In this document: positions 13,222 through 26,220 of the stretch, in pieces | Position numbering within the stretch: position 1 is the stretch's first letter | How the letters are laid out: every line of letters starts with the position of its first letter | From: Candidatus Marinacidobacterales bacterium | GTDB lineage: Bacteria; Acidobacteriota; Vicinamibacteria; Marinacidobacterales; SMYC01 | Reading direction: 5' to 3' | NCBI GenBank assembly: GCA_965237955.1 | Contig: OZ250169.1 | Coordinates: 3,744,001 to 3,808,000, forward strand | DNA length: 64,000 bases | Made by a program: the position numbers and the translations under genes | The notes under the pieces: generated by a model | Database searches by the model: none | Told to the model about the DNA's origin: nothing | The model's input: only the letters and a program-made list of their open reading frames with translations

Positions 13222-14748
13222 ATGTCCGAAGCTAAACGACTGGCCGGCCGGTTGCGCATCAACGTCAATATCGGAAGCGTTCTCTTTCTTCTCGGCCGCC
13301 TGCTGCTCGCGCTCGCGTTGGCACTCCTCGTCCCCGCGCTCGTGGCGCACTATCTCGAAGAAGACGCGCGTTGGGCATTCTATGCGGCCGCCGGCTTCGC
13401 CGCCGCGCTCGGCCTGTTTCTGGAGAGGTATTTCCACCAGGGGGAAGAGTTCGCCTTCGGCCGGCGCGAAGCGTTTCTGCTCGTCAGCTCCGCGTGGCTT
13501 CTGGCGACGGCGGTCGGCGCGATGCCGTACGTGCTGGAGAATGGCATCGCGTTCACCGTGGATGCGCTGTTCGAGTCTGCATCGGGGTTCACCACGACCG
13601 GTGCGTCCATCTTCGCCGATGTGGAGGTCCTCCCGCGCTCGGTCCTGCTGTGGCGAGCGTTGACCCAGTGGATTGGTGGCATGGGCATCATCGTGCTCGG
13701 GATTGCCGTGCTCCCGAAACTCGCAATAGGGGGGATGGAGCTTCTCAGCGCCGAGGCACCCGGGCCCATCCAGGAGAAGCTCACGCCCCGCATCGCTCAG
13801 ACGGCGAAAGCTCTTTGGGGCATCTACGTGTTGTTGACGCTCCTCGAGATAGGAGTCTTATTGGTTCTCGGGCTCGGCCTTCTCGATGCTGTGGCACATG
13901 CGTTCGCATCGATGGCGACGGGCGGGTTCTCCACGAGAAACGGCAGTATCAGCGCGTTCGAGAGCGCGGCGGTCGAGTGGACGGTCACGCTGTTCATGGT
14001 TCTCGCGGGCGCGAGTTTTGCGGTCCACTACCAGTGGCTGCGCGGAAGATTCTCGGTGTTGAAAAAGGATTCCGAGCTTCACCTGTACGTCGGGATTCTC
14101 GCGGCGGGAACTTTCGTGATCGTCTTGGATCTGATGTTCGGGCAGGTCACGAGCTCGTTCTTCGAAGCACTGCGACTCGCAGCGTTTCAAGTGGTGACGA
14201 TCGTAACGACCGCGGGCTTCGTGACCGCGGATTACGAGGCGTGGCCACAGGTCTCTCGGGTGCTCCTCTTCGTTCTCATGTTCACCGGCGGCTGCGCCGG
14301 CTCGACCGGTGGCTCGGTCAAAATCGTTCGCTTGCTGATCATCTTCAAGAAGATCGCGGTCGATTTGAAGCGGATGCTCCAGCCGCACGCCGTCTTGCCG
14401 GTGCGCTTGGGCTCGCGGAGCGTACCCGATGACGTCGTCTCCTCGGTGACGACTTTTTTCGTTCTGTTCTTGCTGCTGTTTGCGCTCGGCGGGATCGCGC
14501 TCACCATCTTCGGTGTCGATCCGGTCTCGGCGTTCTCGGCGTCGGCTGCTTGTCTCGGTAACATCGGCCCCGGTTTCGGCGCCGTCGGACCGACGATGAA
14601 CTACGCGGGCCTACCCGCGGCCGCGAAAGTGCTCCTCGCAGTATTGATGGTCGTCGGCCGTCTCGAGCTCTACACGGTGATGTTTATTTTGTTTGCCTCT
14701 CCTGCCATTTCAGTGGATCCTCTCGAGGGTGAGACCGCCACAGTTTAG
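13222..14748 (+). CDS. trkH: Trk system potassium uptake membrane protein; last codons replaced by ISL3 sequence
   Basis: ESASGFTTTG, ATGGFS, GGCAGSTGG, GNIGPG and GRLEL motifs. Confidence 0.92.
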   Translation: MSEAKRLAGRLRINVNIGSVLFLLGRLLLALALALLVPALVAHYLEEDARWAFYAAAGFAAALGLFLERYFHQGEEFAFGRREAFLLVSSAWLLATAVGAMPYVLENGIAFTVDALFESASGFTTTGASIFADVEVLPRSVLLWRALTQWIGGMGIIVLGIAVLPKLAIGGMELLSAEAPGPIQEKLTPRIAQTAKALWGIYVLLTLLEIGVLLVLGLGLLDAVAHAFASMATGGFSTRNGSISAFESAAVEWTVTLFMVLAGASFAVHYQWLRGRFSVLKKDSELHLYVGILAAGTFVIVLDLMFGQVTSSFFEALRLAAFQVVTIVTTAGFVTADYEAWPQVSRVLLFVLMFTGGCAGSTGGSVKIVRLLIIFKKIAVDLKRMLQPHAVLPVRLGSRSVPDDVVSSVTTFFVLFLLLFALGGIALTIFGVDPVSAFSASAACLGNIGPGFGAVGPTMNYAGLPAAAKVLLAVLMVVGRLELYTVMFILFASPAISVDPLEGETATV

Positions 14749-15930
14749 GTAGACGAGACTGATGAGAGCTTCGGCAGAGTGGAGTCCAAAGCTGCGGTGG
14801 CTCAGCAGCCGGGTTTTGTTGTTCATTCCTTCGAGTCGGCCGTTGCTGAGTCTCCACGTGACCCACGCGATGACGCCATCGAAGTGGCTGCGGATCATCT
14901 TCGCCGCGCGTTTGACGGGCTCTATCCTCGAGCTCATAGCGCGCCGCAGCCATCCTCGGAGAAACTTCTTGGCCCATGTCTCGGTTTTGTAGGTGTAGAG
15001 GTCCATGAAGTCGTCGCGCAGAAGCATGGCGCGGTAGAGGCGACGATTAGCTCGCACCTGCTCGCGGAGCACCCGTTTGTCTTTCGCGCTGCGGTTGTGT
15101 TTGGCCTTGAGAAGGGGAAACTTGGTGTTCTTGAGGTTGCGCCGGGCAGTCCCTTTGAGCTCGCGCACCAGCTCGCGCCGGGTCTTATCCACGGCCTCGT
15201 TCAGATGCTTGACGATGTGGAAGCGGTCAAAGATCACCCGTGCCTGAGGAGCCTTTTTGCCGACGACAGTTATGTACGGCTCCCACATGTCCATGCTGAC
15301 CGCTTCGAGCTCCGCGGCTCTTTGTGGTCCGAGCTTGCGGAAAAACCGCAGCAGCGTCTTGGCCTTGCGCTCCTTTCCCGCCCAGACGACCCGGCCGCTG
15401 AGATGGTCTATTACCACTGTTAAGTACTTGTGGCGTTTGCGGTAGCTGATCTCGTCCATCCCAATCACCCGCAATCCATCGAGCTCGCGCCGCTCATCCC
15501 GCTGCTCGGCAACCACTCGCTGGATGATCCGTCGCACCGAACGCCACGTCACTCGGAAATAGTTCGCTACGGCGCTGACGTCCGTCCTCTGTGCCAGCCA
15601 CGCTACCTCTTGTTCGAAGCTTTTGGTAAAGCGGCTTCCCTTGTCTGCCCAAGGCACCTTTTCTCTGACCACTCCACACCGCCGACATACCACTCGTCGG
15701 ATCGAGTAGCGAAGATAGGTCCGGACTCCGAACAGGTCCAAGTGCCGCCAGTAGCGATTGTAGCGATCTTTGTTCTTGCGGACCTTTCGTCCGCAAATCC
15801 CGCACAGAGGCTTCCTCCTCCGTGGTACTACATCCACCACCACTCTGTCTTTGTCCGCCTGGAAGTGGAAACCTCGGACCCACAGGCCTTGCAATCCGAT
15901 GAGCTTGTTGACTAACGTAGTAACGCGCAT
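14710..15930 (-). CDS. ISL3 family transposase
   Basis: Zn finger CGIC/CRRC; IGMDE, SMDMW, DRFH and NGRLEGMNNK motifs. Confidence 0.93.
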   Translation of the reverse strand: MRVTTLVNKLIGLQGLWVRGFHFQADKDRVVVDVVPRRRKPLCGICGRKVRKNKDRYNRYWRHLDLFGVRTYLRYSIRRVVCRRCGVVREKVPWADKGSRFTKSFEQEVAWLAQRTDVSAVANYFRVTWRSVRRIIQRVVAEQRDERRELDGLRVIGMDEISYRKRHKYLTVVIDHLSGRVVWAGKERKAKTLLRFFRKLGPQRAAELEAVSMDMWEPYITVVGKKAPQARVIFDRFHIVKHLNEAVDKTRRELVRELKGTARRNLKNTKFPLLKAKHNRSAKDKRVLREQVRANRRLYRAMLLRDDFMDLYTYKTETWAKKFLRGWLRRAMSSRIEPVKRAAKMIRSHFDGVIAWVTWRLSNGRLEGMNNKTRLLSHRSFGLHSAEALISLVYLNCGGLTLERIH

Positions 15931-16056
15931 CGCGGGAACGCTCTTTTCTCTTTCGGAAAAAAAGATTCTAGCGTTCTCGCCGATGCGCATCTACACATGG
16001 CTTACCCTCTCAACCCACGGGCCTCACCAAATGCCACTGCCCCTCAGCGGGAGACA

Positions 16057-16149
16057 AGGCTGTGGGAAACGCCCCCACGGTTCTGGTCGTTCAGACCTTG
16101 CTCACGACTGAGTTCTCTTCGAAGCCTGGAAGGGCGTTTTCCATAGCCT
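16057..16149 (+). other. 18-bp stem-loop in the ISL3 leader
   Basis: AGGCTGTGGGAAACGCCC / GGGCGTTTTCCATAGCCT pairs fully on the + strand using 2 G-U pairs. Confidence 0.7.
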
Positions 16150-16192
16150 CCACTAATCGAGCCCCCCCTTCCTTATTCCATATGAATTAATC

Positions 16193-17576
16193 GGGTCTAC
16201 GCGGAAATCTGTGGGCGAATGCTGACGGAGAAATAGTGTAACTCATTGTGTGGAAAAGGTATTCAGCACTTCATCAGGTGCTGAGAAGTGATCCGTTTTT
16301 CGGATAGGCTAACCGAGTGAAAAATCCCCAGTCGATCCGCTCGCTTTTTGCGCTACCAGGTTTCGTGGCTGGCGCCCGATTGAACGGTGTATTCGGTGAC
16401 CGATACGCCCGCGTCATCCAGCTCAAGAGGCGAAAAAAACAGCCGTGTGCTCGTACTGTGGGCATCGGTGCCGGGGGCGCTATGACAAGCAAGTGTGCCG
16501 GGTCCGCGACCTGTCGTTGGCAGGCTGGCGGATCTATCTGGAATACGAGCGTTGGCGCGTCAACTGTCGTGGGTGCGGTGGTGTGCATGTAGAACACTTG
16601 GACTGGCTGGCGAACAACCCGCGCTACACCCAGCGCTTTGCGACGCATGTGGGCAAGCTGTGCCGGGATATGCCGAACAAGGCGGTGGCCGAGATGGAAC
16701 GTCTGCACCACACTACGGTGAAGGACCTGGATAAGCTCTACATGCAAGAGCAAGTCGAGCGGGCGGGGCTGCCGGCGCCTCGGGCCATCGGTATTGATGA
16801 GATCTCCATCCGCAAGGGACATAACTATCGTGTCATTGTCAGCGACCTGGAGCGGGCGCGTCCCATCTGGGTGGGCGGTGAGGGTCGCAAAGAAACCGAC
16901 ATCGATTTGTTCTTCAAGGCGCTGGGCGGGAAGAAAAGCGCCCGTATCAAGCTGGCCGCCATGGATATGTGGAAGCCCTTCCGGAACTCGGTGATTAACA
17001 ACGCACCCAATGCGCGGATCATCTTCGACAAGTTTCATATCATGCGTCACCTGTCAAAGGCTCTCGATGAGGTCCGGCGCCGTGAGTACAAACGCCTCAG
17101 CGGCGAGGACCGGTCGTATATCAAGGGGCAGCGTTACACGTTGCTTTCCCGGCGGGAGAACCTGAGCCTGGACGGTCGCCGCGCACTCAAGAAGTTGCTC
17201 CAGGCCAACCGGCGCCTGAACACCGCCTATGTTTTGAAGGAGGCCTTCGGGCAACTCTGGGATTACCGCACCGAACGCGGGGCTCGCGCCTTTTTCACAC
17301 GTTGGAAAGACAGCCTCAAATGGCAGCGCCTGCATCCCTACCAGAAGTTCGCCGGAATGATTGAGTCCCATTGGGATGGTATCGCCTCCTACTGTCATCC
17401 TGAGAACAAAGTCAGTCTCGGACTGGTTGAAGGGGTCAACAACAAAATCCGTGTTCTGCAACGACGCGCCTACGGCTATCGTGACGAGGGATATCTCAAG
17501 CTGAAGATCGTGGCGGCATTCCTTCCGCCATTACCCAGAAATGCCGTTTTCAACCCACACGAACCCGCGTAGACCC
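16193..17576 (+). mobile_element. ISL3 family element (inner, nested)
   Basis: Inverted repeats GGGTCTACGCGG / CCGCGTAGACCC; perfect 8-bp target duplication AATTAATC (16185-16192, 17577-17584). Confidence 0.93.
16317..17572 (+). CDS. ISL3 transposase split by a probable -1 frameshift at A7C (16433-16440)
   Basis: ORF 16317 (..KRRKK) joins the -1 frame TAVCSYC..., which carries IGIDE, MDMW, DKFH and EGVNNK. Confidence 0.85.
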
Positions 17577-17607
17577 AATTAATCTTTCTTGTATATATAT
17601 CAGGAGG

Positions 17608-17760
17608 GGCCTGTGGGCGCTCGTGGGAAACGCGAAGCGTTTTCCAAGCGATTGTGGAAAACGCCGCTCCACGTTTGTACGTGCTCACAACCTTTCCCTA
17701 AACGCCTCTCTCGCCCGGAGTTTCCGGCGTTTTCCACAATCGCGGCAGCGTCCATAGGCC
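17608..17760 (+). ncRNA. Putative structured RNA or ssDNA element (three-stem junction) in the ISL3 leader
   Basis: Closing stem GGCCTGTGGGCGCT/AGCGTCCATAGGCC; hairpin TGGGAAACGC-GAA-GCGTTTTCCA; perfect 18-bp GCGATTGTGGAAAACGCC/GGCGTTTTCCACAATCGC. Confidence 0.5.
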
Positions 17761-17835
17761 ATGCCCTCCAACACAAATCAGATCCCCCGAAACGACAGGA
17801 GAACCGTTTGTTTTTTAGGCGGGTTGCATAGGACT

Positions 17836-24827: not shown

Positions 24828-24952
24828 TCCCCTCTATCAGAACAAACTAGATAAAGCAGAGCTTGCCGAAACCATTCTAAGTGCATGAATCTTATGAATC
24901 TTATGGGCTGGCGAAAAGCCTAACTTTGTATAGTAATCAAAGATCCAGGGGA
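24828..24952 (+). mobile_element. IS630-derived MITE, copy 2 (125 bp)
   Basis: About 4 differences from copy 1; duplicated CTAG (24824-24827, 24953-24956). Removal restores HSRLGDAVL. Confidence 0.9.
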
Positions 24953-25039
24953 CTAGCCGAGAGTGTTCGCCGCTCAAAAGCTCTTGGAGAAGTGCCTTGT
25001 GGTAGCGATGTGCGGGCGCGTTCAAGCTCAGCCCGCTAG

Positions 25040-26220
25040 TCCCCTGGATCTTTAATTACTGTCCAAATTCGATTTGCCATGTGTATCGAGCGTTCGCTGG
25101 GCGAACCGAGCGATGGTTTCGAGGATTTGGTCGGCGGATTTCGTCCACTTGAACGGCTTTGGGTTCTCGTTGTGAGCATCGAGATAGTCTTGTATCGCAA
25201 CGCGGAGCTGAGGCACGCTCGTGTGCGAGCCTCGTCGCAAGGCGTGTTCGGTGAGCAAGCCAAAGAAGCGCTCAGCGAAGTTGAGCCAAGAGGCGTGTGT
25301 CGGTGTGAAGTGAAAGTGGAACCGAGGTCGCTTGGAAAGCCAGCGTTTGATCGCCGGTGTCTTGTGCGTGGCGAGATTGTCGAGCACGACGTGGATGTCC
25401 AACTCGCTGGGAACGGCTGCTTCGATCTCAGCGAGGAACTTCTTGAACTCTAGCGCTCGATGTCGCGCGTAGCACTTTCCGAAGACTTCACCTGTTGCGG
25501 CGTCGAGTGCGGCAAACAGGTCAGTCGTTCCATGCCGAATGTAGTCGTGGGTTTGTCGCTCGGGCTGGCCCAAGCTCATGGGCAGGACAGGTTGAGCACG
25601 CTCGAGCGCTTGAATCTGCGATTTCTCGTCGACGCACAGGACGACCGCGTTATCCGGTGGGTTCATATACAGGCCAACAACGTCGCGTACTTTTTCGACC
25701 AGTTGTGGGTCTTGCGAGAGACGAAACGATTCCGAGCGGTGCGGTTGAAGCCCGAACGTTCGCCAAATACGTCCAATCGTCGAATGACTCAGCCCAAGAT
25801 GCTTGGCCATCGAGCGCGTACTCCAATGGGTTCTCCCCTTTGGAGTCGTCTCCAGCGTCTTGGTCACGACTTCCTCGATCTGGTCATCGCCGATTTTGCG
25901 AGCCGCTCCCGGCCGAGGTTCGTCGTACAACCCTTCCATTCGTTGTTCTACAAAGCGTCTTCGCCACTTGCCCACCGTGCTCCTCATGGTGTGCATCTTC
26001 CTAGCAACTTCCATATTCGTCAGACCCGCCGCGCAATCCAGCACGATCTTCGCTCGGAAGGCTTGGTGCGGCGAACTACGGCTGCGTCGCGCCAGTCGCG
26101 TCAGCGCTTCGCTTTCTTGAGACGACAGCTTCAATTCGGCTTTTCGCCGGCCCTTGTGTTTCATGCATTTAGCAGATCACAGAAGGGCCGGTGTTGTCTA
26201 GCTTTTTCTGTTCCATGGGA
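25040..26220 (-). mobile_element. IS630 family element
   Basis: Ends TCCCCTGGA / TCCATGGGA flanked by CTAG. Removal restores AFSPSGLSL of the C25 gene. Confidence 0.92.
25052..26164 (-). CDS. IS630 family transposase
   Basis: [32 protein letters not shown] and [10 protein letters not shown] motifs. Confidence 0.94.

Follow-up and report, generated by a model that had tools for sequence, protein, structure and literature searches.

An oriC-like fold-back module in the leader of an acidobacterial ISL3 element recurs beside transposases of several insertion sequence families and on conjugative plasmids

An ISL3 insertion sequence in the 64,000-nt stretch of acidobacterial DNA analysed here (hereafter the window) raises the question of what a long, folded and non-coding leader is doing between the end of an element and its transposase gene. 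The initial annotation had put this leader at about 480 nt; it is 483 nt long once a second, nested ISL3 element is removed (Table 1). The outer element carries the features of its family, namely terminal inverted repeats, an 8-bp AT-rich target duplication and, by Pfam, an ISL3 DDE transposase with a zinc ribbon and an HTH domain. The source genome, a single contig of 8.13 Mb, harbours 53 full copies, with a perfect 8-bp target duplication at 41 of the 53; the flanks of the copy in the window agree at seven of eight positions. This copy was inserted in the 3' end of a membrane protein gene (13222-14748), presumably TrkH-like, and substitutes its C-terminus (overlap 14695-14748). In a search of public genome contigs, near-identical elements were retrieved from two related MAGs only, and are informative for variation within the lineage only.

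The nested ISL3 sits in an AT-rich spacer that separates module A from the three-stem junction, and its empty site was bridged by contigs from two public runs. Insertions concentrate in this spacer (window 16166-16192 and 17585-17597), a hot spot at which 14 of the 80 related copies (L001-L080) are likewise split; where the inserted DNA was inspected, it proved to be a 588-bp IS200-like element, lying in one or the other orientation. The transposase gene of the nested element (window 16317-17572) is split across two frames at an A-run near 16433, possibly through a programmed frameshift. No end-to-end IS joint (circle junction) was present in contigs of seven distinct runs, contigs being a form of data from which rare forms are dropped.

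Table 1. Coordinates of the outer and nested ISL3 elements and of the fold-back modules (positions within the window)
Feature	Position	Strand	Remarks
Outer ISL3 element	14695..17805	-	1,716-1,719 bp minus nested IS; terminal inverted repeats imperfect
ISL3 transposase, 406 aa	14710..15930	-	PF01610, PF13542, PF14690; alternative in-frame ATG upstream at 15990 possible
Nested ISL3, unrelated to outer element	16193..17576	+	8-bp duplication 16185-16192 / 17577-17584; no module inside
Module A, reduced second copy of the module	16045..16149	+	stem conserved in relatives; weak match to model R1, E 0.0035
Module A, triplets with G in third place	16045-16056	+	
Module A, box-like 9-mer	16061-16069	+	
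Module A, stem A	16057-16074/16132-16149	+	18 pairs: 16 Watson-Crick, 2 G-T
Three central-A triplets, DnaA-trio-like, preceded by AT-rich run	17598..17606	+	partly predicted to pair with 17765-17770
GC-rich spacer from triplets to box A	17607..17611	+	from sequence and family profile
Tandem DnaA-box-like sites on continuous 5' arm	box A 17612-17620, box B 17622-17630	+	
P2 hairpin	17624..17646	+	10 pairs, 1 G-T; capped by GNA-triloop mini-hairpin at 17632-17638
P3 stem	17648..17743	+	19 bp, perfect (19/19 Watson-Crick); 58-nt loop; one consensus box per arm, 17653-17661 and 17730-17738
P1 outer stem, 3' arm closing the three-way junction	17748..17760	+	P1 has 13 pairs, 2 G-T

Two fold-back structures had been read in the leader from its letters, one on an 18-bp stem and the other a three-stem junction, and both were borne out by pairing and by folding scores. 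The folding z score of the junction was -8.3 on the plus strand against -5.4 on the minus strand as RNA, and -7.9 against -5.8 as DNA, with none of 200 shuffles equally stable, and that of stem A was -2.6 against -0.7. All five non-Watson-Crick pairs in the two structures are G-T (G-U as RNA) on the plus strand, just as annotated, and in the folded form boxes A and B each have a G-T pair at box position 6. The description of a perfect 18-bp stem holding a consensus DnaA box held in part: a consensus box, TTTTCCACA, does lie in a perfect stem, which is the 19-bp P3, whilst the 18-bp stem A is imperfect and its box-like sequence reads TTTTCCATA. Since the P3 box is altered in two relatives (L136 and L239), it is not the conserved core of the structure.

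A covariance model (R1) was built from 18 homologues, with the copy in the window excluded, and matched both structures of the window, with E 6e-12 for the junction and 0.0035 for module A. Weak matches on both strands at window 24925-25066 (E 0.003 and 0.3) probably reflect an unrelated inverted repeat. In two alignments, of 15 and 18 sequences, 95% of cells were paired and the covariation score was reached by none of 500 shuffles in each; the variable stems covary, and the box cores are near-invariant. The G-T pair at position 6 of box A, a position left free by the search pattern, was kept by 13 of 15 sequences in one alignment and by 15 of 18 in the other, so that both the covariation and the strand bias on which the annotated proposal depended are present among homologues. 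Copies that have lost P3 between repeated core sequences (C1:4907435-4907514; L006) keep P1 and P2, and are still matched by the model. Within the ISL3 lineage, relatives differed at 1/120 stem against 38/364 non-stem positions, 2/120 against 21/364 (p 0.08) and 5/120 against 77/359, and six of eight stem changes yield G-T on the plus strand; judged from these substitutions, the stems are under purifying selection in this lineage.

The loops indicate which nucleic acid is folded. Three-base apices were of the GNA type in 63 of 68 cases and of its reverse complement in none (counted without energies, the closing pair being set by the pattern), whilst four-base apices were GNRA in 3 of 11 and UUCG in none; among model-found loci, 14 of 47 loops were GNA triloops, against one on the opposite strand. 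According to the available text of PMC13037366, the melting temperature of such mini-hairpins is 76.5 C in DNA, against 39 C for an RNA counterpart. The GNA triloops are a DNA rather than an RNA signature. They count against the structured non-coding RNA, transcribed from the strand opposite the transposase, that the initial annotation had offered as one of two readings. The G-U bias and the covariation are equally compatible with RNA, the motif strand came out as the more stable one in 105 of 111 copies when RNA energies were used, and the leader is covered by contigs from two RNA runs of a single study, which are unstranded, open to DNA carry-over and given no weight either way. Fold pairs genome-wide numbered 293 G-T against 46 A-C, a ratio biased by folding the chosen strand and likewise given no weight. 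The module shares with the transposase-associated motifs of Rfam that it is a structured, covarying and IS-linked non-coding sequence, but no characterised family was matched in Rfam 15 (4,227 families), either by the window region (E up to 5) or by ten homologous loci (gathering threshold), and the module is not a member of any Rfam family. Nor was a sigma-70-like promoter found in the leader; the side and strand of the module relative to the transposase vary between elements, which argues against an antisense or leader RNA, and the resemblance to oriC set out below would have no role in one. We consider the RNA reading very unlikely.

The 5' arm of the junction has the layout of the oriC unwinding site, in which trinucleotide repeats are followed by a GC spacer and then by tandem DnaA-box-like sites. 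The basal unwinding system is described, in the available text of PMC8287927 and bioRxiv 2022.03.18.484894, as comprising tandem or overlapping boxes, a GC region of about 4 bp and at least three trios, and the latter source gives three consecutive central-A trios as critical in Bacillus subtilis. In the 87 instances with box A located, of 111 that were non-redundant, G recurs upstream of box A at -6 (0.72), -9 (0.75), -12 (0.66) and -15 (0.52), a GC spacer follows, and the offset between the two box-like sites was 8 nt in 45 and 9 nt in 22 instances. At least three Y(A/C)G triplets were present in 12 of 21 model-found copies (21 of 26 were located; the model includes triplet columns), against 0.6% of 2,168 control sites, and in 28 of 54 copies outside ORF overlaps, again against 0.6% of control sites. 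A coding origin of the triplets was considered and excluded, as they persist outside ORF overlaps. The copy in the window follows the strict rule of three consecutive central-A trios. Among held-out copies only 7 of 21 do so, and among non-coding copies only 8 of 54, C being frequent in the middle place; central-A trios are therefore not a family feature.

The dnaA-dnaN regions of the Acidobacteriota themselves show the same triplet-spacer-box layout, their commonest box being TTTTCCACA (8), against 4 for TTATCCACA. A profile built from 79 IS copies alone gave the top rank, among about 6,900 positions, to a bottom-strand dnaA-dnaN site in 10 of 26 loci, where length would lead one to expect 0.97, a result to which the box richness of oriC contributes; nine of the ten top-ranked sites lie in the triplet-spacer-box register. 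In one dnaA-dnaN region (L252, genome G211), the oriC site runs into a short P2-like fold-back, a possible source of the module. In the window, box B lies 15 bp from the triplets and has two mismatches to the commonest box of the phylum and three to the E. coli box, box A has four mismatches, and the triplets scored at only the 94th percentile of controls against an oriC profile read with a 4-nt spacer. At box position 6, 77% of IS copies have G, whereas A stands there at 15 of 16 oriC sites, which were picked by a rule that favours A. Across 62 copies, mismatches to the box consensus were only slightly fewer in the 3' arm (2.15) than in the 5' arm (2.39; 27 better, 11 worse).

The module thus shares with the basal unwinding system tandem boxes, a GC spacer and a box no more than 16 bp away from the triplets, and agrees with that system in the order, strand and spacing of its parts (PMC8287927; bioRxiv 2022.03.18.484894, available text). 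It differs in that the oriC system is there described as acting on duplex DNA at the chromosome origin and as requiring central-A trios, whereas the middle base of the module's triplets is often C, its box position 6 is mostly G and its complementary strand comes from fold-back. It does not lie at a chromosome origin: all 62 model matches in the source genome fall in IS copies, 61 in this ISL3 and one beside an rve transposase, and dnaA lies at C1:2.35 Mb; the GC skew of the genome gave no clean placement of oriC. The module is not a member of the oriC system.

Confinement to IS copies also bears on the possibility of a REP- or MITE-like repeat that does nothing for the element. Such a repeat could explain a patchy distribution common to unrelated elements, but stand-alone dispersed copies were absent from the source genome, the module has neither terminal repeats nor target duplications of its own, and its stems are under purifying selection, which together make this explanation extremely improbable.

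Beyond the source genome, BLAST with the junction gave matches in 40 of 401 genomes of the phylum, some of them weak; several of the weak ones (e.g. L107 and L110) look like chance and were left out. The core pattern was found in at least 122 metagenome stretches, and model R1 matched in at least 45 of 151 genomes, with 25 candidates per genome scored. Among the 121 pattern instances listed, 67 lie within 700 bp of a representative transposase, of the IS3 (53), IS21 (11), IS256 (2) or ISL3 (1) family. For the other 54, Pfam searches of 102 of 123 nearby ORFs identified IS110 transposases at eight loci, rve/HTH proteins of the IS481-like type at eight, an IstB at one and a tyrosine integrase at one, and the remaining 36, many of them on short or incomplete contigs, were left without an assignment. 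Fifteen of 26 model-found loci examined adjoin IS transposases, two adjoin plasmid genes and nine have no assigned neighbour, and an IS91 transposase flanks locus L103. ORFs of 430-466 aa adjoining further modules (L149:86-1483, L159:204-1493, L270:253-1635) had no Pfam match and may be unclassified transposases. The module is thus not specific to ISL3, since it adjoins IS3, IS21, IS256, IS481-like, IS110, ISL3 and IS91 transposases and also occurs on conjugative plasmids, and its original framing as an ISL3 feature was too narrow.

The families were compared in 45 genomes that had been picked for having the module and are related to one another, with thresholds that were not uniform. Model matches occurred at 14 of 30 rve loci and, at E < 1e-5, at 5 of 18 ISL3 loci (12 of 30 having been removed as duplicate copies, and two weaker matches left uncounted). 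At IS4/IS5-type loci there were 2 in 30, both owned by a neighbouring IS21 or ISL3, and at IS630-type loci none in 30, such that none of these 60 loci owns a module. The raw counts give a Fisher p of 2e-6, which is overstated because the genomes are related, one rve locus was in the training set and the thresholds differed. The module-positive families of this comparison form circles, and the available text of bioRxiv 2023.06.07.543989 lists IS3, IS21, IS30, IS256, IS110 and ISL3 as circle-forming. Most circle-forming IS examined are without the module: it is missing at 13 of the 18 ISL3 and 16 of the 30 rve loci, as well as from the nested ISL3. As most related IS lack one, it is dispensable in general. 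Its strand relative to the transposase varies within ISL3, IS110, IS256 and IS481-like elements; a universal strand rule, true for IS21 and nearly all IS3, was rejected as it is broken by ISL3 (L352), IS256 (L272), IS110 and IS481-like elements. An unrelated rve-type element of the same genome (L240:2040-2220; C1:991046) has a near-identical AT-rich, triplet and spacer flank beside its module, which suggests, from sequence identity, exchange between IS families.

Some copies of the module lie outside insertion sequences altogether. Two in genome G123 are situated between a coupling-protein (T4CP) gene and a VirB11-like gene with no IS, and one in G119 adjoins a RepA_C gene. A variant from viral contigs matched 145 plasmid records, of which 110 were typed conjugative and 115 came from two genera; examples on plasmid backbones are flanked by repA and parA or have ssb and parAB close by. 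The boxes of the plasmid copies read TTGTCCACA or are ATATCCACA-like, a qualitative sign which suggests that the box sequence tracks the host lineage. The motif of the window itself matched one plasmid record and two viral contigs, whilst a search of phages with a Bradyrhizobium copy gave one chance match. A branched module that includes two identical hairpins (L111:100-380) occupies one end of a viral contig; its neighbour is a phage adaptor gene, and no IS was seen.

Such locations raise the alternative that the module is a DnaA-dependent single-strand priming site for conjugative or rolling-circle transfer, which insertion sequences carry as cargo and do not use in copy-out. The IS-free copies on plasmid backbones, the predominance of conjugative records and the lack of a module in most circle-forming IS all agree with it. 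The plasmid figures are, however, raw counts dominated by the two genera, the absence of the module from IS4/IS5/IS630-type elements of the same genomes is unexpected for cargo, and its conservation extends to a chromosomal IS that is present 53 times. A role in transfer alone is in our view unlikely.

The leaders of the outer ISL3 also hold a large share of the DnaA boxes of their genome. Of 274 matches to TT(A/T)TNCACA, 117 lie within these leaders, as do 117 of 179 occurrences of TTTTCCACA, in 0.36% of the genome. DnaA might accordingly act on duplex or cruciform boxes in transposase regulation, cell-cycle timing or titration, with folding secondary; P3 would present two perfect boxes in duplex form, and a DnaA box is contained in the outside end of IS50. 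A duplex or cruciform site predicts neither a G-T bias nor GNA loops confined to one strand, and the position of the module relative to the transposase promoter varies, as does the perfect P3 box, so that we regard this explanation as quite unlikely.

The ABC-primosome A site, which originates from R6K, is the closest known counterpart of a folded DnaA box. R6K was found to contain only one DnaA-box hairpin, upstream of pir, which we take to be the published A site; it shares the geometry of the module, its 5' arm being degenerate, its 3' arm holding a perfect box and G-T pairs occurring in the stem. This hairpin is the only match of model R1 in 39,872 bp, at a non-significant E of 0.23. As described in the available text of PMC6127211 and PMC3105425, the A site is a DnaA-box-like sequence, made double-stranded by the folding of one strand, through which DnaA loads DnaB and primase on single-stranded DNA. 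The module shares this construction, and is predicted to share helicase loading and priming. It differs in its tandem boxes, upstream triplets, branched stems, GNA loops and location in insertion sequences, the A site being described in the same text as one box in one hairpin. By analogy, the module's mode of action is likely that of an A site to which oriC-type triplets have been added. The other reading of the initial annotation, priming by a DnaA box on single-stranded DNA, is supported, whilst the conserved feature proved to be the 5' arm of trios, spacer and tandem boxes, and not a single perfect 9-mer.

The ssi, sso and Frpo signals are likewise strand-specific folded DNA of mobile elements with a single-stranded stage and mini-hairpin loops (PMC7690428; PMC13037366). 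Their readers are RNA polymerase or primases, and no such signal was found described inside an IS element in the literature searched. A host reader other than DnaA, be it RNA polymerase as at Frpo, primase alone or PriA, might be addressed by the module, as the strand bias and DNA-type loops name no reader, mini-hairpins are known from primase and phage polymerase sites (PMC13037366, available text) and Frpo-type sites are common on conjugative plasmids. Because the bases that do not vary resemble a DnaA box and keep the register of oriC, and the leader duplex has no promoter-like site, we give this possibility only a very slim chance. No description of such a module was found in the literature searched, for ISL3, as the initial annotation had also stated, or for any insertion sequence; most subscription papers and bioRxiv supplements lay outside the search.

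We favour, with moderate confidence, the explanation that the leader module is a DnaA-loading single-strand priming site, similar to the A site of the ABC primosome, which is used after copy-out. Most bacterial IS families move by copy-out/paste-in (PMC7780238, available text); a single-strand bridge is formed, and replication from the freed 3'-OH then gives the circle. Accounts of copy-out state that host replication turns the figure-eight into a circle and, in their available text, do not name the primer of the second strand. Beyond its structure, selection, strand preference, oriC-like layout and distribution, which were all observed, we infer for the module DnaA binding, a G-T switch and a role at this step, as follows. 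Synthesis from the donor 3'-OH would displace the circularised IS strand, which would need a primer of its own. The freed plus strand would fold, making the tandem DnaA-box-like sites double-stranded beside unpaired triplets (part of which is predicted by folding to be paired in the copy in the window). Host DnaA would bind the folded boxes, extend on the triplets as in the basal unwinding system of oriC, and load the replicative helicase and primase as at the A site. With G at position 6 where oriC has A, the box on the 5' arm would be a weaker site in duplex DNA, and the G-T pair formed only on folding would restore the consensus T on the partner strand, which may keep at least 50 chromosomal copies silent as origins. 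On conjugative elements, the module would prime the transferred strand. The prediction as to which strand carries the module is weakened, because either IS end is able to act as donor in one IS256-family element, according to the available text of its description.

More tentatively, circle-forming IS and conjugative elements, at least in the Acidobacteriota and Pseudomonadota, might share a swappable mimic of the origin that works only as a single strand, is silenced in duplex DNA by the G-T switch, has its box matched to the host and recruits DnaA to prime the copy-out or transferred strand. Titration of DnaA by the box-rich ISL3 leaders is also possible, and expansion of the IS could affect availability of the initiator. 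If the swappable origin mimic exists as proposed, DnaA would be a direct host factor of replicative transposition. The module offers, for priming of the second strand, a concrete and mutable cis site together with a named host factor, and the ABC primosome, so far familiar chiefly through an in vitro template, would become a widespread natural pathway.
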